53,989 bases of DNA, taken from assembly GCA_009908725.1 (NCBI GenBank), contig JAAAOT010000162.1, forward strand, positions 1 to 53,989, given 5' to 3'. Within the stretch, counting starts at the first letter, position 1; every line of letters starts with the position of its first letter. The notes beneath the pieces are model-generated. The model ran no database searches. It was not told where the DNA came from and worked only from the letters and a program-made list of their open reading frames with translations. The position numbers were made by a program, and so were the translations under genes. This stretch comes from Bacteroidota bacterium. GTDB lineage: Bacteria; Bacteroidota; Rhodothermia; Rhodothermales; Salinibacteraceae. Shown here piece by piece: positions 1,264 through 16,457 of this stretch.

Positions 1264-3665
1264 CTACTCGTCCCGCAGGGTGGTGGCGGGATCTAGGCGG
1301 GCGGCCCGGAAGGCCTGCGCGCTGACGGCGACGAGGGCGATCGCCAGCGCGGAGACTCCGGCGATGGCGACGAGGTCCACCCCGATCCCCGTTCGGTAGG
1401 CGAAGGACGAGAGCCAGCGATTCATCGCCAGGTACGCAATCGGAACGGCTATCAGGAACGCGACTCCGACCAGCAGAACGAACTCACGAAACATGAGATT
1501 GACAACCTGGGCAGCGGTCGCTCCCATCGCCTTGCGAATCCCGATCTCCTTGGAGCGTCGCTGCACGGTGTACGTTGCGAGTCCGAACAGTCCGAGGCAG
1601 GCAACGAGAATAGCCAGCCCGGCGAACAGGCTGAAGAGGCCGCCGGCACGCTGCACATCGCGGTGCACCCGGTCGTAGGTCTGGTCGAGAAAGGTATACT
1701 GAAACGGCGTGCCGCCCGCCATCTGTGTCCACGCCTCACGGATCCCGTCAACGGCCGACGACGTGCTTCCGGGGGCGAGCCGGGCGTAGACGCTCTCCGG
1801 CTGAGATGCCGGCGGAAGGGGGTGATCAATCAGCAGAGCGAGCGGCTCCACCTCCGAACGCATCGACGCGTAATGGAAGTTCTCGACGACGCCGATGACG
1901 TCGTACGTGCAGAGTGTGTCGCAGGACATGAGTTGCTGCTCGAGCGGGTTGTCCCATCCGTAAAGGTCGACGGCCGCCTGATTCAGAACGACAGTGCTGG
2001 AATCCGCGGGCCGGGCAGGATCGAAGCCCCGCCCGTTCACGACCGAGATCTCCATCGACTCGATGAAGCGGGGACCGACCTGCATGTACTGCAGGGCCTG
2101 AACGGTATTATCGCCGCCCCCGACGGGCATGAACGACGTCTGCGAGGCGCCGCGAAAAAGCCCGTCGCCCGACGTCGCCGACCGAACGCCGGGTATGCGG
2201 GGCGATCCGATCGGTAAAGGTGGTCTGTTGCGTACCGAGGTCACCGGCGCGCTTGATTTCGACGACGCGTTCCTTGTCCAGCCCGAGACGCTTCGACTGG
2301 ATGTAGTTGAACTGGCTCTGCGCGACGAGCGTCCCGATGATGAGCGTAATGGAAATTGCGAACTGAAACACCACGAGGCCCTTCCGGAGACGTCGGCCCT
2401 GCCCGCCCGAGCTTTGGCGCCCGGCCGAGCGCAGCACCGTGGAGGGGGCGAAGCGGGAGAGAGCAAATGCCGGGTAGCTACCGGCCCCCCCCGACAACAA
2501 GAGCGATCAGGATCGCAGCGGCCACGGTCCACGGTCCCAGCACATCGCCGGAGGTGAGCGACGTCCCGGCCAGCCGGTTGAAGAGCGGCAGGGCCATCAG
2601 CGAAACGATGAAGGCAGCGAGCGTAGCGATCGCGGCAGTCACGGTCGCCTCCCCGAGAAACTGGCCGGCGAGTTGCTTTCGACCGGCGCCGAGCGCTTTC
2701 CGCATTCCCACTTCCGTTGCGCGCTCCGTCGCCCGGGCCGTCGCCAGGTTCATAAAGTTGATGCACGCAATCAGCAGGATGAACAGGCCGATCAGCGATA
2801 TGGTGTATACGACGGAGATCGACCCGCTGGGCCCGACGTTGTTGTACGGCGAATGAAGGTAGATCGACGGTAGCGACTCCGCGACCAGACGATAGACAAA
2901 GTTGTCGGACGGGTCCCCGAACCGGCCGCGGACGTCCTGCATCGCTCGGGTTTCTACGATTGCGTCCAGCTGGGACTGGAAGTCGGCGGTCGTAGCCCCG
3001 TCGACCAGCCGGGCGTACGTCACGAACGCGAACCCGGTCCAGTTTTCCTTGAACACATCCCGCATTCCCTGACGCCGGACCACCGCACGAAACTGAAGGT
3101 GCGACGTCTCGGGCACGTCGGACATCACGGCCGTCACCCGGCGCAGATCGCCGTCCATCTGCAGGGTTTCCCCCACCACGTCCGCCCGGCCGAAAACCTC
3201 TTGGGCGGTGGTCTCCGTCAAGACAACGGCATCGACCGGTTGCAGTGCAGTGTTCGGGTCCCCGCGCACCACGTCGAACCCGTCGAACACATCGAAGAAT
3301 GTGGAGTCCACCTTCAAGGCCTGCCGCTCGGACAGCGCCGTTTGTCCCTTGCGAAAGATGACCCGATCGGGCCGGACCCGGACGACCGCTTCCGCCTGCG
3401 GCACGTCGCTTCGAATGGCCGGGGCGAGCGGCGCGGGCACACCGATCGTCCGGGTCATCGCGTCGGTAATGCGGGCCTCGATCGCGACCCGATGAATCCG
3501 GTCGGCGCCGGGGTGAAAGTCGTCGAAGCTCAGCTCACGCTCCACCCACAGACCGATGAGCAGGCATGCGGCGATGCCGGCCGTCAGTCCAAGAATATTG
3601 ATTACGGTCGGGCCGATGCGCTTGCGGAGCGTCCGGGCAGCGATCGTCAGGTAATTGAACAGCAT
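1264..3665 (-). pseudogene. ABC transporter permease (MacB/FtsX duplicated-domain type) split by two +1 frameshifts
   Basis: Starts MLFNYLTIAARTL at 3665. Motifs ACINFMNLATARATERATEVGMRKALGA, GSYPAF...LRKGLVVFQF and RRSKEIGIRKAMGA fall in three consecutive frames. Breaks are at a C8 run (2485-2492) and a G4 run (2199-2202). Confidence 0.8.
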
Positions 3666-3885
3666 GGCGGGAGGGAAAGACAGACAGGCCGGCGAATCGT
3701 CGAGGGGTACGTATCTCTGGCTGTACAATCCGCGTTCCGCACCGTGCTGCCACCGATTGCGGCGCGTGCACGCCGGTCCTCGGCGCCCGACCGTGCGTCA
3801 ACGCACAATCGACCGTGCGCCGCCGCACAACGTCCAGATCTGGACCAGGCCGATTCACCAGCGGCGTTACGGGAGCCCGCCGGAC

Positions 3886-6645
3886 TCACGGCGCAGACTC
3901 GCTCCTCTCCACCTGAGGTTGCATCGCGCGGGCATCGGCGAGTCGCTGGCGTGCCGTCTGAACGCGGCGGTCGTCGGGGCCGTGCGTTTCCCGGAGCCGA
4001 TCGTAGCTCTCGGTGAGCAGCGGTACGGCCTCTACCGGCCGCCCGAGCGCGGTCAGGCAGGCCCCGAGCGTGTTGCGGGCGACGGCCACACGCCAGTGCC
4101 CCTCTCCCAGTGCCTCCACGCGCAGGTTGACGGCTTCGCGGAGAAGCGGTTCGGCCTCGGCGGCACGGTCTGTTTCGACGAGCAGAGCGCCGAGTCGAAT
4201 GAGCGGGTAGGCGGTGTTCACGTGGCCGCCCGGAAAAATCCGGCGATGGAGGTCGAGGCTCTGGCGGTACCGGGTCTCCGCCCGCGACCGTTGACCTGCC
4301 GCGTGCAACGACGAGGCGAGGCTGTAGCTCAGGGCCGCAGCATACGGGTGTTCGGGTCCCAGCGTCGACTGCACGACCCCCAATGCGCGCCGGTAGTACG
4401 TGGCCTGCTCCCCGTGCCGCTCCAGACCGCCCAGAATCCCCGCCAGGGTCCCCATGCTCGCCGTCGTTTCTACGTGCTCTTCCCCGAACACCTCGATGCG
4501 CATCTCAAGGGCGCGGCGCGCAATCGGCTCGGCCGCGGCGTAATCGCCCATGGTCGAGTACAGTCGCGCCAGATGATTCAGCGTATGGGCTACGTCCGGA
4601 TGCGGGCCGTCGTACAGGCGCTCGCGCATGGCCAGTGCCTCGCGGTAGAGCGTTTCTGATTCCTCGAACTGGCTCTTGTGGCGGAGAACCATCGCCAGAT
4701 TGTTCAGGCTCATCGCCACATCCGGATGGTCCCCGTCGTAGGCCTCGCGTCGCAGGCGGAGCACGCGTCGGTAGAGGGTCTCGGCCGTTTCCCGGTCCCC
4801 CTGGTCGAAACGCAGGGTGGCCTGTTCGTTGAGCGTGCTCGCCGTGCGGGGGTCGTCGGCACCGAAGTGCTCGGTGCGTAGGGCGAGAGCACGCTGGAAG
4901 AGGGAGTCCGCCCGGTCGAAGTCGCCCTGCTGGTGGAGGAGCGTACCGTAGTCGTGGAGCGTCGCTGCCACGTTGGGAGCGCCTGAACCTGCGGTTTCGC
5001 GCTGCAGCGCAAGCGCCGCACGATAGAGGGAATCGGCCGTCGTGTAATCGCCCGTCTCCTGCCGAAGGATCGCCAGGCTGCGGAGGCCGGCAGCGACCTC
5101 CTCCGGCTCGGCGTCGGCTCCGGTTTGGCGGAGATCCAGCGAGCGCTCCAGTAGCGGGCCGGCCGCGTCGAAGGCGCCGAGGCTCTGGTACACACTGCCC
5201 ATCACCTGCATCATGCGGGCCTGTACGCGCGGCTGACCGGTCAGATCGCGCTCGATCCGCTCGGCTCCCCGGTCCAGCACCGCCCGCGCCGTCACATTCT
5301 CTCCCCCCGACCGAGCGGGATCCGCGACGGCGAACAGGTCCTGCAGGAAATCGGACACCCGGGTAGCGGTGGCGGCTTCAAGCCGGGCGCGATCGCGTTC
5401 CTGCGCCAGCTGCACCGTGTAAAAACTGACGAGCACCGCGATAAGCAGCATCACCGCTGCGGCTACCGTCACACCGGCGCGATGACGCTGCAAAAACTTG
5501 CGTGTGCGATAGGCGACGGTGTCAGGTTGAGCCGCGACAGGACGGCCCTCCAGATAGCGCTGCAGGTCGTCGGCCAGTTGTTCGGCCGAGGCGTAGCGTC
5601 GCTCCGGCTCCTTCCGAAGCGCCTTCAGGCAGATCGTGTCGAGGTCTCCTCGCAGCGCCGGCTTCCGCTCCGCCGGTGCCACCGTGGAAGGCGGATCCGG
5701 GAGCCGCGTTGACACGATCCGCTCGATGTCGGCAGGGGAGCGGTTGGCAAGGTCGAAGGGCCGTTGTCCGGCGAGGAGTTCGTAGAGCACCACGCCGAGC
5801 GCGTACGTGTCCGTCGCCGTTGTCACAGAGCGGTGCTGTACCTGTTCAGGCGCGGCGTACGCTGGCGTCATCACGGCGCTGCCCGTGCGGGTCAGGGCGT
5901 TATCCGCGGAATCTCCGGTCAGCACCTTGGCAATCCCGAAGTCGAGCAACTTGACCTGTCTCTCGCCCCGTGCGGTGTCGTCAGCTTCCGATACAAGCAG
6001 ATTCGACGGCTTCAGGTCGCGATGCACGATCAGGTGACGGTGGGCGTACTGCACGGCGGTGCAAACGTCCCGGACCAGCCGAATCCGCTCCTCCACCGAG
6101 CACGCGGCCTCCTCACAGTAGCGGTCGAGCGGTACGCCGTCGACGAACTCCATGGCGAAGTAGGGCCGACCGTCGGTGCTGAGACCGCCATCCAGCAGGC
6201 GGGCAATATTCGGGTGATGAAGTCCGGCCAGAATCTGCCGTTCGCTCTCAAATCGTCGTACGATCCGCTCCGACGCCATCCCGCCGCGGATGATCTTCAA
6301 CGCGACCTGCTGCTCGAAGCCTCCATCGGCGCGTTCCGCAAGAAAAACGGCCCCCATGCCGCCGCGTCCGATCGGCTCGATAATGCGGTACGGGCCGATG
6401 CGCTCGCCGTCGGAGGGAAGGATCCCGACCGGGAGCAGGTCGTGCGGTAGCGCGATGGCGTCGAGCGCCAGACTGTCGAGCAGGGGATGCGCATTGGCGT
6501 CCGCCGCAAGCAGGGACCGGAGCTCGTCCAGCAGGTCCGGGTCGCCGGCGCATTTTTCCCGGAGAAACGCCTCGCGCTGCTCAGGCGATCGATCCAGGGC
6601 AGCGTCAAACAGAGTCTGGATTCGTGTCCATCGGGCGGCGTCCAT
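3886..6645 (-). CDS. Membrane-anchored Ser/Thr protein kinase with C-terminal TPR array
   Basis: Hanks motifs GRGGMGAV, VALK, HRDLKPSN, DFG, TPAYAAPEQ; a TM segment (GVTVAAAVMLLIAVLVSFY); then many ~42-aa TPR repeats (HPDVAMSLNNLA...). ATG 6645; alternative TTG 6660. Confidence 0.93.
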   Translation of the reverse strand: MDAARWTRIQTLFDAALDRSPEQREAFLREKCAGDPDLLDELRSLLAADANAHPLLDSLALDAIALPHDLLPVGILPSDGERIGPYRIIEPIGRGGMGAVFLAERADGGFEQQVALKIIRGGMASERIVRRFESERQILAGLHHPNIARLLDGGLSTDGRPYFAMEFVDGVPLDRYCEEAACSVEERIRLVRDVCTAVQYAHRHLIVHRDLKPSNLLVSEADDTARGERQVKLLDFGIAKVLTGDSADNALTRTGSAVMTPAYAAPEQVQHRSVTTATDTYALGVVLYELLAGQRPFDLANRSPADIERIVSTRLPDPPSTVAPAERKPALRGDLDTICLKALRKEPERRYASAEQLADDLQRYLEGRPVAAQPDTVAYRTRKFLQRHRAGVTVAAAVMLLIAVLVSFYTVQLAQERDRARLEAATATRVSDFLQDLFAVADPARSGGENVTARAVLDRGAERIERDLTGQPRVQARMMQVMGSVYQSLGAFDAAGPLLERSLDLRQTGADAEPEEVAAGLRSLAILRQETGDYTTADSLYRAALALQRETAGSGAPNVAATLHDYGTLLHQQGDFDRADSLFQRALALRTEHFGADDPRTASTLNEQATLRFDQGDRETAETLYRRVLRLRREAYDGDHPDVAMSLNNLAMVLRHKSQFEESETLYREALAMRERLYDGPHPDVAHTLNHLARLYSTMGDYAAAEPIARRALEMRIEVFGEEHVETTASMGTLAGILGGLERHGEQATYYRRALGVVQSTLGPEHPYAAALSYSLASSLHAAGQRSRAETRYRQSLDLHRRIFPGGHVNTAYPLIRLGALLVETDRAAEAEPLLREAVNLRVEALGEGHWRVAVARNTLGACLTALGRPVEAVPLLTESYDRLRETHGPDDRRVQTARQRLADARAMQPQVERSESAP

Positions 6646-6710
6646 GTCATCCGTCGTCAATAGGAGGCGGGAAGGGCGGCGGAAGGCCGAGGCGTTCGAC
6701 GGCCCCCGCT

Positions 6711-6746
6711 ATGTACAAACGCAGCAAACACGTCTGCAACCGGTCA
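6711..6746 (-). promoter_or_regulatory. Putative ECF-sigma promoter upstream of the kinase gene
   Basis: TGACCGGT-N15-TGCGTT-TGTACAT; 24/36 identical, without gaps, to the element at 10212-10247. Confidence 0.55.
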
Positions 6747-6770
6747 CGCCCGGACCGAGACCTTCGACAT

Positions 6771-7334
6771 TCAGCTGTCGGCGTGTTGGAGGGCACGGCT
6801 CAGCCAGGCGCGCGCCAGGCGCCAGTCCCGCTGCACCGTAGACACGGAGACGTCCAGGATGGTGGCAATTTCCTCCTGCGTCAGCCCCCCGAAAAAGCGG
6901 TAGACCACGACCCGGCTCTGTCTTTCGTTGATCTCTTCGAGTTGTTCGAGGGCATCGTTCAGGTCGATCAGCTCTTCGGCGCGGATGCTCCGCGGTGCCA
7001 TCCCGTCCTCAAACGTTGCGACCGGTGCACCGCCCCCGCGCTTCTGCGCCTGTCGCTTCTTCGCGTAATTGATCAGGATCCGTCGCATGGACAGCGCGGC
7101 CACGCCCATGAAGTGAGCGCGGTTCTGCCATGTCATGCGGTCCTGCTGGACGAGCTTTTCGTAGGCCTCATGCACGAGGGCCGTCGTGTCGAGCGTGTGG
7201 TTGGCTCGTTCACCGTTAAGGGACCGGCGGGCGAGCGACTTGAGCTCGTCGTACACGCGGGGCAGCACCGCGTCAACCACCGTCCGATTGCCGCCCGTCA
7301 GGTCGTTGAGCAATTCCGTGAAAGGCTGGGACAT
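6771..7334 (-). CDS. ECF sigma factor, kinase-associated (ECF43 / sig70_X6-like)
   Basis: VYDELKSLARR, HTLDTTALVHEAY (Thr pair replacing the DAED motif), MRRILINYA, RFFGGLTQEEIA, STVQRDWRLARAWL; immediately upstream of a Ser/Thr kinase; no anti-sigma gene. Confidence 0.9.
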   Translation of the reverse strand: MSQPFTELLNDLTGGNRTVVDAVLPRVYDELKSLARRSLNGERANHTLDTTALVHEAYEKLVQQDRMTWQNRAHFMGVAALSMRRILINYAKKRQAQKRGGGAPVATFEDGMAPRSIRAEELIDLNDALEQLEEINERQSRVVVYRFFGGLTQEEIATILDVSVSTVQRDWRLARAWLSRALQHADS

Positions 7335-7622
7335 GCCGAAAAACGGTTCGAGAGGGGACCTGAGTACGATTTAGAATACAAGGTGCTCGAAGCCCGATCA
7401 ACGCCCGGTGCCCCAAAATCACCAGTACGCGCCAATTCTGACACGGTGGATGCGCCACATCCCACATCCGGGCAGACGCCCATTCAGCGGACCCACCTAA
7501 ATTATTAAGAAATGATGAACGGTTGCTGTTCGTTCGCGGATTCGATGCGTCAGTAAGTGAGAGCCGACCCCACCGGCCCCTGCCCTGCCCATCGTTTGCC
7601 CGTCCACCTGACGCCCGCGACC

Positions 7623-10040
7623 ATGCCCTCTTTTCGAGCACTCGTGTTCATCATCGGATTCACTCTACTCCTCTCCGCCTGCGACAGCGGCGCACCGGGC
7701 ACCTCTTCGTCCGGTGATGTCGAAGACGTGGACTCCTACCTCAACGAGCTGCCTGACTGGAGCGAGTTCTCGCCTCCGAGGCCGGATGCCGGCGGCCCGA
7801 CCGGAGCAGCGGTGAAGGAAGCGCCCATCAGCGTCGACGTCGACAGCATTGGTGACGACGGCGAAGTCTACACCCTCGAGAACGTTGAGTACGAGTGCGA
7901 GACCCAGCCGTACTCGATCACGCGCACGCCGGGGCGCGACCTCGTCATGTACAACCCGAGCGAGCTGCTGTGGCCCGGCGCGCTGCTCCAGGGGAAGAGC
8001 CACACGATCGGCAGCATGTCCGATCTGTCCATTTCCGGAGCAGAACGCGCTCCCCTGAACGTGTCGCTCAACGTATCGACGACACGGGCGAGCTTTCGCA
8101 CGGTCGAGGAGCCGACGAAGTCCGTGGTTCGCGATGCCGTGAGCACCATGGTCGGCGAGGCGGTGCAGGATGGCATTGCCACACCGAGTTCGATCGCGTT
8201 CGAGCTCCGAACGTACCACAGCGAGCAGCAAACAGCCCTCGAGATGGGCCTCTCCGGACGCTACCTCGGATACAGCGCGTCCGCCCGCGGCTCGATCGAG
8301 CGCCAGGCATCGGAGACGACCGTCACAGCGCACTACTACCAGAACATGTACGAGGTCGAAATCGACAATCCGCCGGCACCGGGCGACGTCTTCTCCGAGG
8401 CATTGACCGAGGAGAAGCTCCAAGAACTCCAGCGCAGCGGCGAGATCGGGCCGGACAATCTGCCGATCTACGTGTCGAAGATCATTTACGGCCGGATGAT
8501 GATGTTTTCCCTCACCTCCACGGCGAGTCGGAGCGAGATTGAGGCCGCGATGAACGCCGCGTATGACGGGATTGGCGGGGACGGCAGCGCGTCGCTGAGT
8601 GCCAAAGAGCGGTCGATTCTGAACGAAGCGAAGATCGAGGTCACCTCGGTCGGAGGGGACGGACAAAACGTGATCGACGTGATTCGCTCGGGGAACTGGC
8701 GAGACTACTTCACCGAGAACGCCCCGCTCAGCACCGCAGCCCCGCTCAGTTACACGTTCCGCAACCTGGGCGACAACAGCATCGCGAAGGTCACCGAGTC
8801 GACCGACTACGAGATCCGGACGTGCACGGCCACGCAGGCCTCACCGGGTACGTTCGACCTGCAGGATGCCGCCACGCTGTCCGTTCCGATCTCGACGCCT
8901 TTCTCCACGACCGTCACCGACGTGGATGGCGACAGCAATGACGACCTCATCTTCAACCATCTCGGAGCGACGAATGAAGTGGCCATCGCGTTCTCCAACG
9001 GCGACGGCACGTTCGCGTCTCCACAGGTCCAGATTCATCCGGATGCGCCCGCCAGCGGATGGGCAGATTCCGACTTCGTCACGGCCGACCTGGAGGACGA
9101 CGGCAGCCATGAACTGGTCTGGAGCCGGGTCGATAACGTGAGCGGGGCGAACCGGACGTACGTAGCGCGTGCCAGCGGCCGTTCCCTCACATTCCTTGAC
9201 GGCGTGACCCACCCGGACACGCCGTCCCAGGGCGGCGGCTGGGATCAGTACCGAACGCTCGTCGGCGACATGGACGGGGATGGCGACGACGACCTCGTCT
9301 GGAACCTTCTCGGAAACCGAAACCGCACCTTCGTCGGCTTCTCTAATGGCGACGGCACGTTTCGCCTCCCCACCACCAGCCAGAACCAGGGGAGCACGTG
9401 GTTTCCCTATGAGGCCTTCGTCGGCGACGTGACGAATGACGGGAAGGCCGACATGCTCTGGTCCGTTACGACCGACAGCCGCAACGGCTGGTACGTCGGA
9501 GAGTCGCTTATCGAGCCGAATACGGATCCCGGCGAGGGCGCCTACTTCGACCTGAGATTTGCTGAACGCGGAGGCAGCGGATGGGACGACTACTACACAC
9601 TGACCGGCGACATCGACGGGCAGAACGGGACCGATCTGGTCTTCGTCGCGCTCGGTCGAACGAGCGAAAACGTTCCCGTGCACCGCGTGCTGTCTGATGG
9701 AAACGGGTCGTTTATCGCCGGCAACCTGGATCGGCTCAAAACGAACGGTGGGTCCGACAACCGCATCTCCGTACGCCTCGCGGATGTTACGGGGGAAGGC
9801 CGGAGCGATCTCGTCGTTCACAACTGGACCGCGCGAGAAACCTATGTCGGCCTCGGCACCTCGGACGGCTCGTTCGATTTCTCACGCGCCGCGCAATCCG
9901 TTCCACAGGACGACTGGTCGCAGTTCATTCTTGCGACCGGCGACTTCAACGGCGACCGGCTGCAGGACGTCCTCTGGATCAATGAAGCGCCGAGCAGCCG
10001 GGTCTACGTCGGCCTCGCCCGGCAGGACGATGCGCTGTAG
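7623..10040 (+). CDS. Lipoprotein: thiol-activated cytolysin (CDC-like) core plus seven FG-GAP/VCBS repeats
   Basis: Lipobox LLLSAC. CDC motifs LWPGALLQG, RAPLNVSL, YYQNMYEV, PIYVSKIIYGR, SVGGDG, APLSYTFRNLGDN. Then seven DxD/NGDGxxDL-type repeats. ATG 7623 preferred over the ORF-track start 7557. Confidence 0.85.
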   Translation: MPSFRALVFIIGFTLLLSACDSGAPGTSSSGDVEDVDSYLNELPDWSEFSPPRPDAGGPTGAAVKEAPISVDVDSIGDDGEVYTLENVEYECETQPYSITRTPGRDLVMYNPSELLWPGALLQGKSHTIGSMSDLSISGAERAPLNVSLNVSTTRASFRTVEEPTKSVVRDAVSTMVGEAVQDGIATPSSIAFELRTYHSEQQTALEMGLSGRYLGYSASARGSIERQASETTVTAHYYQNMYEVEIDNPPAPGDVFSEALTEEKLQELQRSGEIGPDNLPIYVSKIIYGRMMMFSLTSTASRSEIEAAMNAAYDGIGGDGSASLSAKERSILNEAKIEVTSVGGDGQNVIDVIRSGNWRDYFTENAPLSTAAPLSYTFRNLGDNSIAKVTESTDYEIRTCTATQASPGTFDLQDAATLSVPISTPFSTTVTDVDGDSNDDLIFNHLGATNEVAIAFSNGDGTFASPQVQIHPDAPASGWADSDFVTADLEDDGSHELVWSRVDNVSGANRTYVARASGRSLTFLDGVTHPDTPSQGGGWDQYRTLVGDMDGDGDDDLVWNLLGNRNRTFVGFSNGDGTFRLPTTSQNQGSTWFPYEAFVGDVTNDGKADMLWSVTTDSRNGWYVGESLIEPNTDPGEGAYFDLRFAERGGSGWDDYYTLTGDIDGQNGTDLVFVALGRTSENVPVHRVLSDGNGSFIAGNLDRLKTNGGSDNRISVRLADVTGEGRSDLVVHNWTARETYVGLGTSDGSFDFSRAAQSVPQDDWSQFILATGDFNGDRLQDVLWINEAPSSRVYVGLARQDDAL

Positions 10041-10074
10041 ACGACGGGATCCACGCGTAACATACAGGCACAGG

Positions 10075-10120
10075 GGCGCCCCGCAATGTCCAGCCGTTCG
10101 GGCCGGGCAGGCGGGGCGCC
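10075..10120 (+). other. Perfect 10-bp inverted repeat between the two CDCL genes (no U-tract)
   Basis: GGCGCCCCGC (10075-10084) / GCGGGGCGCC (10111-10120). Confidence 0.5.
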
Positions 10121-10211
10121 GGTGCATGATGCCGAACGGTCAGTGATGGGCTTCCGCGCACGGAGCCACGCCTTCCTCACCCGGACACCAATGTTAAGAT
10201 ACGTTGAAGCA

Positions 10212-10247
10212 TGATCGGTCCGACACCGGGTTATTGCGTCTATACAT
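10212..10247 (+). promoter_or_regulatory. Putative ECF-sigma promoter upstream of the second CDCL gene
   Basis: TGATCGGT-N15-TGCGTC-TATACAT; same spacing as 6711-6746; the 3' part is also shared with 7546-7566. Confidence 0.55.
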
Positions 10248-10303
10248 GAGAGCCGCCTGGGAAGAATCGCAGCGCTCTCATCGGAAGTCTCGATTCTCAT
10301 CAG

Positions 10304-11935
10304 ATGCTGCGCGACGTCATGACCTATCTACGAACTGCCGTCCTTGTCACCGTCCTGGCCCTGACCCTCACCGCGTGCGATAGCGCACCCGGCACCGATT
10401 CTAGCACGGAATCCATTGGCGACTACCTCGCCACCCTCGACTACGACGCGAGTGCTCTGCTGAACGTCCAGCCCAGCGACGCCGCCCGCGAGCCGGTCGA
10501 TACCACGACCACCACCGAACAGGATGGAAACATCGAGCGCACCTGCACCCGCACGTCGTACAACCTGCAGAACAACTTCGAGGAGATCGCCATCCTGCGC
10601 CCGACCGCGGACGTCATCTGGCCCGGGGCACTTGTGGAAGCCAACCAGTCGCTCCTCGACGGACTGCCCGAGCCGGCCCGGTTCGACCGCTCTCCCGTCA
10701 AGATCCGGATCGACCTTCCGGGCATGGGCGAGAATGGAACCAGGACGATCGAGCGTCCCGACCTGGCCAGCGTGCAGACTGCCATCGACGAGGCGCTGGA
10801 GTGGTGGAACGCCAATGCATACGAAGAGGGATACGTGAACGCCTCCAGTTCGTCAAATCGCATCACCACCTCGTACACATCAACCCAGGCGTCGATGGAT
10901 GTGGGGCTCAACGTCGCCTGGGCTACGGGAGACGTGCAGTCGCAATTTAACTATGAGACGACGGAGACGCAGCGCGTGGTCATGGCGACGTATAAACAAG
11001 CCTTCTACACGGTCAGCTTCGTGCAGGAAAGCGGCGCGCAGCCCGAGGACGTGTTCGGTCCGGGCGTGTCGCTGGCGGATGTTCGGTCTGCCTTCAATAA
11101 CGACGCCCCGCCGGCGTATATCGCGTCGGTGACGTACGGTCGGATCATCATGTTTCGGATGGAAACATCGGCGTCGTACACCTCCGCCGAGGTGGAGGCC
11201 GCGTTCCGTTATGCCGCCGGCGCGCAGGTCGACGGCGACATGGAGGCGCGCTACGAGGAGATCCTGGAGCGCTCCACCGTCGAGGTGATCACGCTGGGGG
11301 GCAACGCCGCCGTGGCCTCTGAGGCGGTGACGGCACGCTCGGCGGGGGACCTGGAGCCCATCATCACGGGAGAGAACGCGGTCTACTCGCGCAGCAACCC
11401 GGGGGTACCGATCTCGTACGCCGTCAAGTATCTAAAAGACGACCAGCTGGCGAAACTGGGCTACACGACCGAGTACACCGCCACCGAGTGCTCTTCGGTA
11501 CAGACGGCCAACACCATCACGGTCGATCTGAAAGAGTTCTTCGTCCGCAGAGATTGCGACGGCGGCCTCAATGGAGACGGTGAATTCCAGTTTCGGGCCA
11601 TCGTAAACGGGGGCGGCACCCGAGTAGGCGACTTCATCCGGGGACGTCCCGAGGTCACGCTGGGCGACGGCGACAGCGTCGTGCTCAACGAGGAGGTCGT
11701 TTTCGACATGGAGCGAGAGGACGGAAACCAGTTCGCGATTACCTTCTACAGCACGGAGTGGGATCAAGGCGTCGGGGGACGGGTCAAGGACTCCCGCATG
11801 GCCACCCTCAGCACCTCCAAGCGGCACACGTTCGGAAGTACGGGTTGGAGCAACGTGACCACGAGCGACATCCGCCTCGTCAACGGCAGCCAGGATTGCC
11901 AGGCCGAGCTTGTCTACTCGGTGGACGTGATCTAG
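10304..11935 (+). CDS. Lipoprotein: thiol-activated cytolysin (CDC-like) core plus ~140-aa C-terminal beta domain
   Basis: Lipobox LTLTAC. Motifs IWPGALVEAN, RSPVKIRIDLPG, YKQAFYTVS, PAYIASVTYGR, TLGGNA, GVPISYAVKYLKDD closely match the CDC core. No ECTGLAWEWWR undecapeptide. Alternative start 10319. Confidence 0.88.
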   Translation: MLRDVMTYLRTAVLVTVLALTLTACDSAPGTDSSTESIGDYLATLDYDASALLNVQPSDAAREPVDTTTTTEQDGNIERTCTRTSYNLQNNFEEIAILRPTADVIWPGALVEANQSLLDGLPEPARFDRSPVKIRIDLPGMGENGTRTIERPDLASVQTAIDEALEWWNANAYEEGYVNASSSSNRITTSYTSTQASMDVGLNVAWATGDVQSQFNYETTETQRVVMATYKQAFYTVSFVQESGAQPEDVFGPGVSLADVRSAFNNDAPPAYIASVTYGRIIMFRMETSASYTSAEVEAAFRYAAGAQVDGDMEARYEEILERSTVEVITLGGNAAVASEAVTARSAGDLEPIITGENAVYSRSNPGVPISYAVKYLKDDQLAKLGYTTEYTATECSSVQTANTITVDLKEFFVRRDCDGGLNGDGEFQFRAIVNGGGTRVGDFIRGRPEVTLGDGDSVVLNEEVVFDMEREDGNQFAITFYSTEWDQGVGGRVKDSRMATLSTSKRHTFGSTGWSNVTTSDIRLVNGSQDCQAELVYSVDVI

Positions 11936-11980
11936 CGGGAGATGCACTGCCGAGCCGATCGTCGCCACCCGACGGATGAA

Positions 11981-13249
11981 TCACCACCCGAAGCGAAGCT
12001 GGATCGTGTGGGCGTACGCGGACCCGTCCTCGGGCAGAACGCCTTCCTGCCGGCCGTAGATGGCGTAATCAACGTGCACCACCCGCCCGTTGAGACCGAT
12101 CCCCGCGGACGGGAGGCCCTGGCTCAGCCCCGCCCGGAATTGAACGAGCCCGGCGTTGGTTTCCGTCCCGAGCCGCAGGCGCCGGAAGAAGGACTGGCGC
12201 GACCCGGTCGTGGAGGCAGTGCTCCAGTCGAGCAACACGGTCGTCGCGCCCATCCGCGGCATGTACTGGCGGGAGATGGCGTAGGCGACGCCGAGTCGCA
12301 TCCGCGGACCGTCGAATTCATCCAGAATAGCCTCTGCTGCCTCCACGGATCCCGCTTCCGGCTCGTCGTCGAGTGCCCCGAAGAAGTCGTCCTGCTCGTA
12401 CGAGATCTGCCCGCCGAGCAGGTCGTACACGGCAAGGGCGGCGGTCAGTCCCTCGACGCTGGCGACGTCGTACTGCAGGCCGAGGTCGAGCGCGACGGTG
12501 GAACCGGACAGGATCGGCGGCACGTCGAAGTCCTCCGCGATCTGCCGGTAGGTCGACACGTAGCGGCGCACGTAGCGGCCGGTCACCCCGGCGCGGACGC
12601 CGGATGTCCCGATGGGCATGCCCGCACCGACGGCCACGATGCCATCGGTCTGCCCGAACACGGCGATGTCGGGGGAAAGGGGACGCGGGATCGCCTGCGC
12701 CCGTGCGGTCTGGGTCACGTACGCTCCGACGCTGAGGCCCACCGTTCCCGCCCGGAAGACGGCCGACGGAAGCAGCACGGCCAACCGGAGCGTAAGCGGG
12801 CGCTCGAAAAGCTCCAGCGCCTGCTCCTCAACCGCATCGACTTCTTCGTCGGTGAGGTCTTCTACGTCGGCAAGTTCATCCTCAAACAGGTCGATCGCAT
12901 CCCGGACCCGACCTGGTCGACCGCTCGCTGCCACCCCGAAGATCGTGAAGCGCGGCTCGTTTCCCCACTCGGCTCCCAGTTGAGCCGGATTGATGAGCGA
13001 GGCGATGTACAAATCGGGGCGGGCCACCCCAGCATCGCCGCGGGCGAGCATGGACGGCATGATGGGCGTGGCGCGGGCATCCGCATACGTACCCTGCGCG
13101 GCCGCCTCCTCGCCCGGAAGGGCCATCAGGAGCAACGCGATGATCGCACCCGTCCAGGAAACCCGGGACGACAGGGCGTTGCGTGAAAGAGAGCGGCCGG
13201 GGAACGAAACAACGGGGCGAGAGCAGTCAGAGCACCGGGGACGGGACAT
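11981..13249 (-). CDS. Outer-membrane beta-barrel protein (TraF/FadL/PorV-like N-terminal motif)
   Basis: Signal-like segment ending AAAQG; LARGDAGVA...SLINPAQL hatch-like motif; amphipathic beta strands; C-terminal HTIQLRFGW beta-signal. Start uncertain. Confidence 0.65.
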   Translation of the reverse strand: MSRPRCSDCSRPVVSFPGRSLSRNALSSRVSWTGAIIALLLMALPGEEAAAQGTYADARATPIMPSMLARGDAGVARPDLYIASLINPAQLGAEWGNEPRFTIFGVAASGRPGRVRDAIDLFEDELADVEDLTDEEVDAVEEQALELFERPLTLRLAVLLPSAVFRAGTVGLSVGAYVTQTARAQAIPRPLSPDIAVFGQTDGIVAVGAGMPIGTSGVRAGVTGRYVRRYVSTYRQIAEDFDVPPILSGSTVALDLGLQYDVASVEGLTAALAVYDLLGGQISYEQDDFFGALDDEPEAGSVEAAEAILDEFDGPRMRLGVAYAISRQYMPRMGATTVLLDWSTASTTGSRQSFFRRLRLGTETNAGLVQFRAGLSQGLPSAGIGLNGRVVHVDYAIYGRQEGVLPEDGSAYAHTIQLRFGW

Positions 13250-13499
13250 GGCAGACGGAGGGATCTGATCGACCGAGGGCAACGGCACCCGGAACGGCAG
13301 ATCGTGGCAGCCCCAGCGACTTCTCCGGGTGAAGAGAGTGGGAAGAGACTACGGACCGAAGCGCCCGCTCCGCGAATCCTGTGGCGACCGCCGGTAACGC
13401 ACCCCGGCGCAATCTGAGGGGGAAATTGGCGCAGGCGGATTCGCCTCCGGCGCATGACCCCGTGCACCCGTTCATGCCACCTCGCCGCCCCGCGATCGA

Positions 13500-14674: not shown

Positions 14675-16457
14675 TCAGGACGGGGTGTAGTCGATTTCCA
14701 GGGCACGCAGCAGCTGCGCGTCGCGGCCGTAAATGTCGTTCCGAAAGTGAACCGCGCCGTCCTCGACCCACGCCGTCCAGTACTGCAGGTGGACCGGGAC
14801 GCGTCGCTTAAGGACGACGGCTCGCTCCCCTCCGTCCCCGTACATCTCCTCGCGGACCCGCTCGCCGGTCCACCCGGCCTGATCTTCGAGCAGGTACGTC
14901 GCCAGCTCCACGGGCCGTTCGACCCGGATGCACCCCGAACTGAAGCTCCGTTCGGCCTGCTGGAAGAGTCCGCGCGTCGGCGTGTCGTGCAGGTACACGC
15001 TGTACGGGTTGGGAAACATAAACTTGACCCGACCCAGTGCATTGAGTGGTCCGGCATCCTGGCGTAGGCGGAACGGGAAATTCTTCGGCGTGATCGTGGA
15101 CCAGTCGATCGTGGCCGGATCCACGGGGGCCGCGTCCGAATCCCACGAGCGAAACACCTTGATCCGCTGCCGCTCGAGGTAGCTCGGATCCTGCTTGATG
15201 AGGGGCAGCTTGTCCTCGACGGCAAGCGTGTGCGGGACGTGCCAGAACGGTCGGAAGACAAGGTACGAAATCTCGTCCGAGAAGACCGGCGTCTGACGGT
15301 AGGGCCGGCCGGTCACGACGCGCATGGACAGAACGGTCTCCCCCTCCTCGACCACATCCAACGAAAACCCGGCGATATTGACCAGGACGTAGCGCGCACC
15401 GAGAGAGTCGGGCATCCATCGCCACCGCTCGAGGTTGGCGACGAGTTGCGCGACGCGGCGCTCGACCGGGACATTCATCGCCGCACGTGTAGCATCACCG
15501 ATGACGCCGTCGGGCGTCAGTCCGTGTCGCCTCTGAAAGCGGACGACGCCAGCCTCCAGCCCATTGTCATATCGGTACAGGGAATCCGTCGGCGCGTCGG
15601 CGGCTTGCTCCGGGCGGACGTCTCCCCCGGTCGAAGGCAACGACGGAGCACGTTCATTTCGTGCACGCACGGAATCGACCGGGACTAGCACGTCTCCGGT
15701 GATGGCGAGTCGCTCACGGATCAAGGGAACGCGGGGGTCGACCTCGCCGGGTTTCAGGGACGGTCCGTCCGGGACAGCCGGCCAGCCGCCGTCCATTTCC
15801 ACGTCACGGTACTGCCGAAGGGCGTTCTTCAGCGCCGCGTAGGCCGGCGCCGCCGGCGTGACCGAAGCGAGCGCCGCGTCGAGATCCCTCGACGACGACA
15901 GCCGTCGCAGGACCGACATCACATCCCCCGCCCGCGCCGGCATATTCCACGTGGGCGTCACCTCGCCGGGCGAGACACGACCGAACGCACGGTGCGTCGC
16001 GTACCGCACGAGCGCTTGTGCACAGTAATTCGAGTTCGACAAGGTCCGCGACCGACACAGAATCGGCCGACTGCACCGCCCGTACTAGCTGCTCGATGCG
16101 GCCTGCCGGATACGCCTCCGGCGAGAGGCCTTCGTCAGCCGCCGAGGTCAGCACATCCAACAGGCGTTCTACGACGGGAAGAGGGCCGGTACCGTCCACC
16201 CACAGCGGCTGAAAGCCCGTCTCCTCGTACCAGCGCATCATCCGCAGCGGGCGACTCTCTTCATCCGGTGGCAGCCCCTCCAGGCCGTTCACCTCGCTCT
16301 CGACCCGCGTCCGGATCTCCTCGACCACCCGTGCCTTCAGGGAATCCGCATGAGCCGTCGTGGACGCGTCTTCCACGCCCGGTGAACCCTCACCGGTCTG
16401 GCAACCGGTCCAGAGCAGCATCAGCATTCCAACAACCCAAAGCAGGTGCCGCCCCAT
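14675..16457 (-). pseudogene. YcbB/LdtD-like L,D-transpeptidase lipoprotein with one frameshift near 16015-16020
   Basis: N-part (ATG 16457, lipobox LWTGC, scaffold domain) and C-part (PG-binding FQRRHGLTPDG, VNIAGF, NALGRVKFMFPN, YLHDTP, SSGCIRV) are in different frames joined at ELLCT/QALVRYA. Confidence 0.8.

Follow-up and report, generated by a model that had tools for sequence, protein, structure and literature searches.

A Dedicated ECF43-Type Sigma Factor and Membrane Kinase Linked to Genes for Cytolysin-Like Lipoproteins in Rhodothermales and Other Bacteria

Introduction

Genes for cytolysin-like lipoproteins in Rhodothermales and in several other bacterial groups lie beside a dedicated pair of regulatory genes, which encode an extracytoplasmic function (ECF) sigma factor of the ECF43 type and a membrane Ser/Thr kinase with a tetratricopeptide repeat (TPR) array. 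The system is described here from a contig of 53,989 nucleotides (JAAAOT010000162.1, assembly GCA_009908725.1; "the window" denotes this whole stretch) from a member of the Salinibacteraceae, where the regulatory genes are divergent from two tandem lipoprotein genes, A and B, whose products resemble cholesterol-dependent cytolysins (CDCs). Its gene content, linkage, sigma lineage, and motif distribution are matters of observation. Their best explanation, to which we give about an even chance, is that a cue sensed by the kinase activates the sigma factor, which in turn induces pore formers that work as single components, probably against eukaryotic grazers. A preliminary description of this DNA had proposed such a switch coupled to a two-component pore, and the four genes it named all lie where it had placed them, with three candidate promoters between them, as follows.

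3886..6645, minus strand: Ser/Thr kinase-TPR gene (Pfam Pkinase, TPR_12 x8; 919 aa from the ATG at 6645)
6716..6746, minus strand: predicted sigma-dependent promoter of the kinase gene (18.4 bits, p 0.01 versus shuffles)
6771..7334, minus strand: ECF43-type (TIGR02999) sigma factor, 187 aa (TIGR02999, PF07638, DTTA motif; cytolysin-linked lineage)
7523..7553, plus strand: weak candidate promoter of gene A (3.8 bits, p 0.07)
7623..10040, plus strand: cytolysin-like lipoprotein A, 805 aa from the ATG (PF01289 109 bits, FG-GAP_3 x5)
10212..10242, plus strand: sigma-dependent promoter predicted for gene B (p 0.01, 18.3 bits when held out)
10304..11935, plus strand: cytolysin-like lipoprotein B, 543 aa (PF01289 254 bits)

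Linkage of the Kinase–Sigma Module to Cytolysin-Like Genes

The link between sigma factor and cytolysin-like genes is real and deep. Among 285 genomes of the order Rhodothermales, 30 have a match to PF01289, and the 29 besides that of the window yielded 33 loci; the sigma gene lies within 22 of these, and 9 of the 11 misses are on contigs shorter than 10 kb. A second set comprises the 80 top-ranking of 205 GTDB loci for B (10 of these 80 repeat the Rhodothermales set); it has the sigma gene at 45 loci in six phylum-level groups, the sigma-linked taxa being Rhodothermales, Balneolaceae, Ignavibacteria, Calditrichota, KSB1, Cyclobacteriaceae, and Chitinophagales, with sigma and cytolysin genes in divergent, convergent, or tandem order. 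In 201 genomes drawn evenly from the Cyclobacteriaceae (the family of G285), a TIGR02999 sigma gene was located within 5 kb of 7 of the 10 B-clade genes (6 of 9 when the seed genome is removed) versus none of the 24 other PF01289 genes. The neighborhood survey that the preliminary description had called for thus found the kinase and sigma genes to be a conserved and dedicated neighbor of the cytolysin-like genes, to which they remain linked in related genomes.

The sigma factors concerned form a lineage of their own. In a first tree of 57 rows, from which 15 near-duplicate loci were omitted, the sigma paralogues that are not adjacent to cytolysin genes make up one clade (support 100/97), and the same sigma orthologue adjoins A, B, or both within the family. 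In a FastTree phylogeny of a chosen subset, rooted at the midpoint, a single branch (SH-like support 91) parts 31 cytolysin-adjacent sigmas from 37 others, against a shuffled mean of 22.7 changes. The adjacent sigma is the sole TIGR02999 sigma in 4 of 10 genomes scanned.

Because the window's own genome has eight sigma-kinase modules, the adjacency needed testing; at least one ECF43-kinase module is present in 47 of 58 genomes of the family, and modules so common in the lineage might have come to lie beside cytolysin genes by chance. This is highly improbable in view of the linkage across phyla in several gene orders, the dedicated sigma lineage, the promoter motif that tracks the sigma (see below), and the joint absence of the genes from the same-genus genome G178. 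In G178, which is 99% complete, the genes that flank the module are 2 kb apart with unrelated genes between them, so the module was apparently gained or lost as a unit. Mis-assembly of the gene order is likewise unlikely, since contigs from two studies span the sigma-A and A-B junctions.

A Predicted Promoter Motif That Tracks the Sigma Factor

Loci in which no start could be called (four in all) were set aside before the motif work, and Gibbs sampling of 44 de-duplicated upstream regions (4 of 8 restarts reached the motif pair) gave de novo an ECF-type motif, TATCACTT-n15-GCGTCTA, in which the spacer is 15 in 40 of the 44. At 10 bits or more, this motif lies ahead of 54 of the 61 sigma-linked genes (leave-one-out scoring was used for 40) and 11 of 13 unlinked genes in sigma-bearing lineages, and it was found at none of 30 sigma-less genes and on none of 60 reverse strands; L137, whose sigma gene is cut by the contig end, was counted outside the sigma-less group. 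Training across lineages also recovers the motif (25/35 and 35/41 at p <= 0.03; 0/30 for sigma-less genes). The preliminary description had supposed that the cytolysin genes are coupled to the sigma factor, and a shared motif that accompanies the sigma gene supports this and, as far as sequence can tell, points to direct control.

Within the window, the site before B (TGATCGGT-n15-GCGTCTA) retains 8.9 bits (p 0.03) even if all Rhodothermales are left out of the training of the matrix. The site before the kinase gene is found again at 12 of the 20 sigma-kinase junctions from Rhodothermales versus 0 of 37 elsewhere, and is predicted to give positive feedback in this order. Four of the top seven motif matches genome-wide precede cytolysin, kinase, or array genes, and the genome's seven other modules have at most one distant match (12.7 bits). 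Autoregulation of the sigma was rejected, as the motif stands before only 2 of 61 sigma genes, and so was a role as the general ECF43 promoter, as it lies near 2 of 30 other ECF43 genes.

Contig C101 of the same genome (3992 bp) carries two further A-type genes in tandem, both truncated by contig ends. A 20-bit promoter site belongs to an A gene on this contig, and a 147-aa lipoprotein gene between the two A genes has the top promoter score of the genome, 23.5 bits; its product could be an accessory or immunity protein.

Kinase, Sigma Factor, and a Replacement Regulator

The sigma factor matches TIGR02999 at 197 bits (cut-off 126) and PF07638 with an E value of 6e-51, and its class is assigned here as ECF43-type through these families, the DTTA motif, and the TPR kinase at the +1 position. 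The motif occupies residues 49-52 in place of the acidic DAED motif and leaves one acidic residue, at position 1. In ECF43 sigmas, according to PMC13147305, the acidic motif is replaced by an S/T motif of consensus QTTA, which includes the T51 position of EcfK; by analogy, Thr51 is the predicted phospho-acceptor here, with Ser instead of Thr in 12 of 31 members of the cytolysin-linked lineage. The kinase (Pkinase E 9e-45) has all of its catalytic motifs intact (GxGGMG, HRDLKPSN, and DFG), followed by a single hydrophobic transmembrane (TM) helix and a TPR_12/TPR_10 array; an alternative TTG start at 6660 would add five residues. Activation of the sigma through phosphorylation by this kinase is likely, judging from the known ECF43 pairs.

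Elsewhere, ECF43-kinase modules adjoin other exported proteins, such as PKD/beta-helix lipoproteins and adhesin-like proteins (L266, L267, L273-L275, L277, and L278), and modules with other exported-protein neighbors also occur on contigs C48, C73, C218, and C374 of the window's own genome. This suggests that the series kinase, sigma, and cargo is a general design that extends beyond cytolysins.

The sigma gene is absent from 30 GTDB loci, of Flavobacteriales type and from Lacihabitans, and no TIGR02999 gene over the cut-off was present in the three sigma-less genomes scanned. A gene for a TPR-TM-LuxR protein (for example L106:7854-9749, minus strand) lies beside B in 27 of the 30 sigma-less loci, most of L105-L139 among them, versus 0 of 38 sigma-linked loci, and tandem TGTCC repeats precede B in 30 of 30 versus 0 of 38. 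Two unlinked second copies of B in the Cyclobacteriaceae sample likewise follow a TPR-TM-LuxR gene. These counts suggest that the TPR-LuxR protein, a one-component regulator, takes the place of the sigma at such loci, so that nearly every B gene has a membrane TPR sensor as its neighbor, either the kinase or the TPR-LuxR protein. A TGTACCC variant of the repeat was seen in L283 and L284.

The kinases at L034:11048-14412 and L054:4257-8488 have one and the same alternative type of TPR ectodomain, followed by an orphan remnant of the window type, an apparent case of receptor ectodomain switching. At L059:4095-4649 (minus strand), a stand-alone lipoprotein of 184 aa that is 30% like the C-terminal tail of B is divergent from an ECF43-kinase pair. 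Observations of this sort bear on a different account, in which the lipoprotein is a signaling partner of the kinase (a TPR ligand or co-receptor) or a self-directed pore, with feedback through the sigma and no exported weapon. The non-toxin lipoproteins beside other modules are in keeping with it, as are the L059 protein, which is C2-like and has no pore core, and the TPR ectodomain common to both regulator types. It is nonetheless decidedly unlikely: the TPR type is independent of the cargo, with L034 (a B locus) and L054 (an A locus) sharing the alternative domain and L032 and L035 (B) and L063 (A) sharing the window type at 71-73%, and the family alignments of both A and B show little or no variation in the CDC core motifs. 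The exchange of TPR ectodomains independently of cargo weakens the partner account, and a lock-and-key pairing of TPR and cytolysin is disfavored for the same reason.

Domain Structure of Proteins A and B

Both products combine a CDC-type core with a C-terminal domain of another kind. The lipobox cysteines, Cys20 in A and Cys25 in B, were assigned by pattern without a dedicated predictor. The PF01289 scores, listed above, far exceed the cut-off of 25 bits, and the core motifs are present at WPGAL 117, YY 238, YGR 289, GG 344, and PLSY 374 in A (Xn = 49) and at WPGAL 106, FY 234, YGR 278, GG 332, and PISY 369 in B (Xn = 42); neither protein has the ECTGL or WEWW of the undecapeptide. Profile search and motif check thus agree with the preliminary description, which saw in A and B lipoproteins with the CDC core motifs and without the undecapeptide. 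The structure prediction that it had proposed gave AlphaFold2 models (pLDDT 82.7 for A and 78.8 for B) in which both cores are predicted to adopt the fold of CDC domains 1-3, with matches to pneumolysin at Z 24.4 (root-mean-square deviation, rmsd, 3.3 over 334 residues) for A and Z 28.0 (rmsd 3.6 over 346) for B. In the predicted hairpins, the alternation of hydrophobic and polar residues is clear in B and less regular in A. What the earlier reading overlooked is that these are long forms, whose C-terminal domains are unrelated to each other.

In A, the core (about residues 35-404) is followed by an FG-GAP/VCBS beta-propeller (about 407-802), the best fold match of which is the lectin PVL (Z 27.3, rmsd 2.9 over 326 residues), with the next propeller at Z 21.3; the whole protein has a weak sequence match to AAL2 (E 1e-5). 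The tail of A is accordingly modeled as a PVL-like lectin propeller with predicted glycan binding.

In B, the core (about 34-399) leads into a predicted C2 domain (400-543). Most structure matches of this tail from rank 5 down are C2 domains, at Z 8-10 (best 10.1, rmsd 2.9 over 105 residues), including that of perforin (Z 9.3, rmsd 3.0 over 111), and an atlas lead places it at 0.80 to a cluster with 30% PF00168. Asp417, Asp419, Glu485, and Asp487 are invariant across 19 aligned B tails, an acidic pattern that we take to resemble the Ca2+ loops of C2 domains. As modeled, the tail is a predicted C2 domain that would bind Ca2+ and lipid, in a layout like that of perforin. By sequence, B is much closer to the one-component CDCs (streptolysin O, E 1e-45) than to the CDC-like proteins (CDCLs) of Elizabethkingia (CDCL-L, E 8e-11).

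Relatives of B in Cytophagales, Chitinophagales, and Flavobacteriaceae have a shorter, swapped tail, which in L131 aligns weakly with domain 4 of suilysin (E 0.043). L131, L134, and other B proteins of these groups have a domain-4-like tail in which the undecapeptide region is degenerate and a WGT motif is present; these proteins are possible intermediates between CDCs and CDCLs. A third cytolysin-like type of about 640 aa (PF01289 122 bits), with a different, unannotated tail, occurs at L068:5458-7389, L194, L198, and L232 and precedes A or B in Balneolaceae-type loci. The B genes of L033, L045, L046, and L085 are disrupted by stops, frameshifts, or insertion, so the cassette evidently decays in some genomes.

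Single Genes or an Obligate Pair

The preliminary description had the two lipoproteins form a two-component pore, and here the survey departs from it. Under such a scheme A and B would be an obligate pair, one anchoring and the other polymerizing, as in CDCL-L and CDCL-S. The two genes do lie side by side in the same direction in the window as well as in G179, A and B are also neighbors in L031, L046, and L085, other mixed arrays (C+A, C+B, and B+B) exist in Balneolaceae and Ignavibacteria, and pairs of CDCLs of similar size have been published (PMC11169675). Across the Rhodothermales, however, just 3 of 33 loci have A next to B, in either order (A-B or B-A), and most loci have one cytolysin gene. 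In near-complete genomes a single type is present: B is the only PF01289 match in G223 (98%), G004 (97%), and G142 (97%), and A is the only one in G173 (99%), G092 (98%), and G147 (94%). Each gene has a separate promoter site, that of B being strong and lying between the two.

The published two-component CDCLs, as set out in PMC11169675, consist of a long and a short protein or of similar-sized pairs of closest relatives. At the window locus, no short subunit of about 365 aa lacking domain 4 was found next to either gene, since A and B both retain a C-terminal targeting domain, and no intact tail-less form of 330-400 aa occurs among 107 open reading frames (ORFs). Nor do A and B resemble the similar-sized pairs, as they differ in length (805 versus 543 aa), share 24% identity, and fall into separate deep clades (tree of 50 rows, a chosen subset). 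An obligate pair is therefore improbable; A and B are best read as two exchangeable cargo cassettes, and they probably act singly.

Genomic Setting of the Module

The window's own genome is 84% complete and has no further PF01289 class, and the nearest named homologues are from Longibacter, Salisaeta, Salinivenus, and Salinibacter. Housekeeping genes at 20550-47028 (DEAD helicase, fatty-acid synthesis, dnaA-dnaN, frr, gmk, and dnaB) place the module within the core chromosome. A TraF_2/PorV-like outer-membrane barrel gene (11981-13288, minus strand) converges on B; it is a flanking gene and not part of the module, since G178 has the barrel gene and lacks the module. Two minus-strand genes, for a MacB/FtsX permease (1264-3728) and an L,D-transpeptidase (14675-16457), are each broken across two reading frames and are pseudogenes or assembly errors. 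Scans for sigma-70 promoters and terminators across 3600-12200 gave chance levels only, and as no terminator between A and B was found in them, read-through from A into B may occur.

Proposed Mechanism and Competing Explanations

In the proposed mechanism, the TPR array of the membrane kinase would sense an outside cue and activate the kinase, which would phosphorylate its own ECF43-type sigma by analogy with EcfK and EcfP (PMC13147305, PMC8999054). The sigma would then transcribe each cytolysin-like gene from a separate promoter and, in Rhodothermales, the kinase gene as well, creating positive feedback. A and B would be exported as lipoproteins, B docking on phospholipid through its Ca2+-binding C2 domain and A on glycans through its PVL-like propeller, and either protein, once bound, would oligomerize into a beta-barrel pore as a single component, with grazers as the probable target; these may be grazing protists. 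From promoter use onward, through export or release, pore formation, single-component action, and tail ligands to the target, this is what we infer from the genes and models described above.

The same switch and the same single-component pores could instead be directed at neighboring bacteria or archaea, through anionic lipids and surface glycans, as with the Bacteroides CDCLs. We regard this as unlikely, though a real contender. It is favored by the killing of bacteria by characterized CDCLs (PMC11169675), by the resemblance (Z 21.1) of the A propeller to the one with which the Streptomyces UmbA4 complex binds its receptor, and by the C101 lipoprotein, which could be an immunity protein; against it, no conserved immunity-like gene accompanies most of the single loci inspected, the C2 and domain-4-like tails recall binders of eukaryotic membranes, and the EcfK precedent is anti-amoeba.

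Several findings weigh against a sigma-controlled, single-component, grazer-directed system, whatever the merits of its rivals. The promoter of A in the window keeps a matching -10 element (GCGTCA) at the conserved spacing with a degenerate -35, is not significant alone, and is just as weak in the same-genus G179 (3.3 bits). Linkage fades in distant relatives of A from metagenomes. Of 113 such loci the 80 best, many of them on short contigs, were inspected; the sigma was seen at 22 of these and the sigma or kinase at 30 (at 10 of 16 where 2.5 kb are available on both sides), and the motif reaches 10 bits in 11 of 64. Viewed from the sigma side in the Cyclobacteriaceae sample, 7 of 26 sigmas are cytolysin-adjacent, 19 of 26 ECF43-kinase modules lie beside non-toxin lipoproteins, and in all of the linkage counts the related genomes are not independent samples. 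The window's genome has no excess of the motif over spacer-shifted controls (50 versus 37-68 matches at 13 bits), on which ground a large regulon was rejected, and the motif differs from the GTC/CAG predicted for ECF43 promoters (PMC7826278, supplement part 13). The tail assignments come from fold, as the B tail has no sequence-profile match for C2 and the A propeller alone no significant sequence match. Finally, the characterized CDCLs are antibacterial and require a partner, as far as PMC11169675 describes them.

More broadly, and tentatively, the loci may be forms of an ancient and dedicated sensor-to-toxin circuit of environmental FCB-group bacteria, in which a receptor kinase with TPRs acts with a single sigma lineage (TPR-LuxR takes their place in Flavobacteriaceae) to induce polymorphic single-component pore formers, perforin-like with CDC core and C2 domain or lectin-guided, in defense against protist grazers. 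A single CDCL gene is present in 821 of 1578 CDCL-encoding Bacteroidota genomes, a group set aside in PMC11169675. For many of these single CDCLs there is now a candidate regulator, along with a defined promoter and targeting domains by prediction, and their hosts include the cultured non-pathogens Algoriphagus, Cyclobacterium, and Salisaeta. The ECF43 phospho-switch, for its part, gains a tractable small regulon outside Proteobacteria. Two unrelated TPR-sensor regulators over one toxin clade amount to a natural experiment that bears on the signal of PknS-type TPR receptor kinases.

Comparison with Known Systems

The system is real, conserved, and assembled from two known kinds of part. The combination of kinase and sigma with cytolysins was not found in the literature searched, which left out most subscription papers, and the same holds for the coupling, the promoter, the dedicated sigma lineage, the replacement of the regulator, and CDC-family proteins with C2 or lectin tails; six taxon names had no match across seven supplements of PMC11169675.

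On the regulatory side, the module has in common with the ECF43 pairs EcfK/PknS of Xanthomonas citri and EcfP/PknT of Vibrio parahaemolyticus a PF07638/TIGR02999 sigma without an anti-sigma, an xTTA motif, and a kinase at +1 that has a single TM helix as well as extracytoplasmic TPRs (PMC7826278, PMC13147305, PMC8999054). It differs in lying outside Proteobacteria, the group to which ECF43 is confined in its published description; in its predicted output, cytolysin-like genes, whereas those of the pairs are a type VI secretion system or polymyxin resistance, the output of EcfK/PknS being anti-amoeba (PMC13147305); and in its promoter motif and the Ser that often replaces Thr.

Among pore formers, the two-component EaCDCL-L/S and BfCDCL-L/S share with A and B the PF01289 core, the F/Y-F/Y-Xn-YGR motif, the GG pair, a signal peptidase II (SpII) signal, the lack of the undecapeptide, and unrelated C-terminal domains (PMC7527733, PMC11169675). 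The window system, unlike these, has no short subunit, consists mostly of single genes, has a dedicated regulator attached, and bears C2-like or lectin-propeller-like tails; B is closer to CDCs than to EaCDCL, and A, at 805 aa, exceeds the longest protein (674 aa) of the published adjacent CDCL set (PMC11169675). With the CDCs themselves (streptolysin O, pneumolysin, perfringolysin O, and the Gram-negative CDC of PDB 6NAL), A and B share sequence and the domain 1-3 fold, and B aligns to streptolysin O from residue 31 without a long insertion. They differ from CDCs in their lipoprotein signal, in having no undecapeptide or TL pair, and in the replacement of domain 4, ahead of which the core alignments stop.

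The tails have their own counterparts. That of A shares DxDxDG repeats and GW/W loops with the fungal lectins PVL and AAL2 and with VCBS propellers, and the GW/W loop forms the sugar pocket in PVL (PMC8023676); it differs in being fused to a CDC core, with 20% identity and sugar binding that is predicted; PVL-type lectins bind GlcNAc/Neu5Ac where their blades meet. Perforin-1 (MACPF and C2) and B have in common a pore core followed by a C2 domain, predicted in B, with invariant acidic residues. The core of B is of the CDC type and not of the MACPF type by sequence, so the likeness is one of architecture, and the fusion of CDC core and C2 domain, if borne out, would be a bacterial parallel of the perforin layout.

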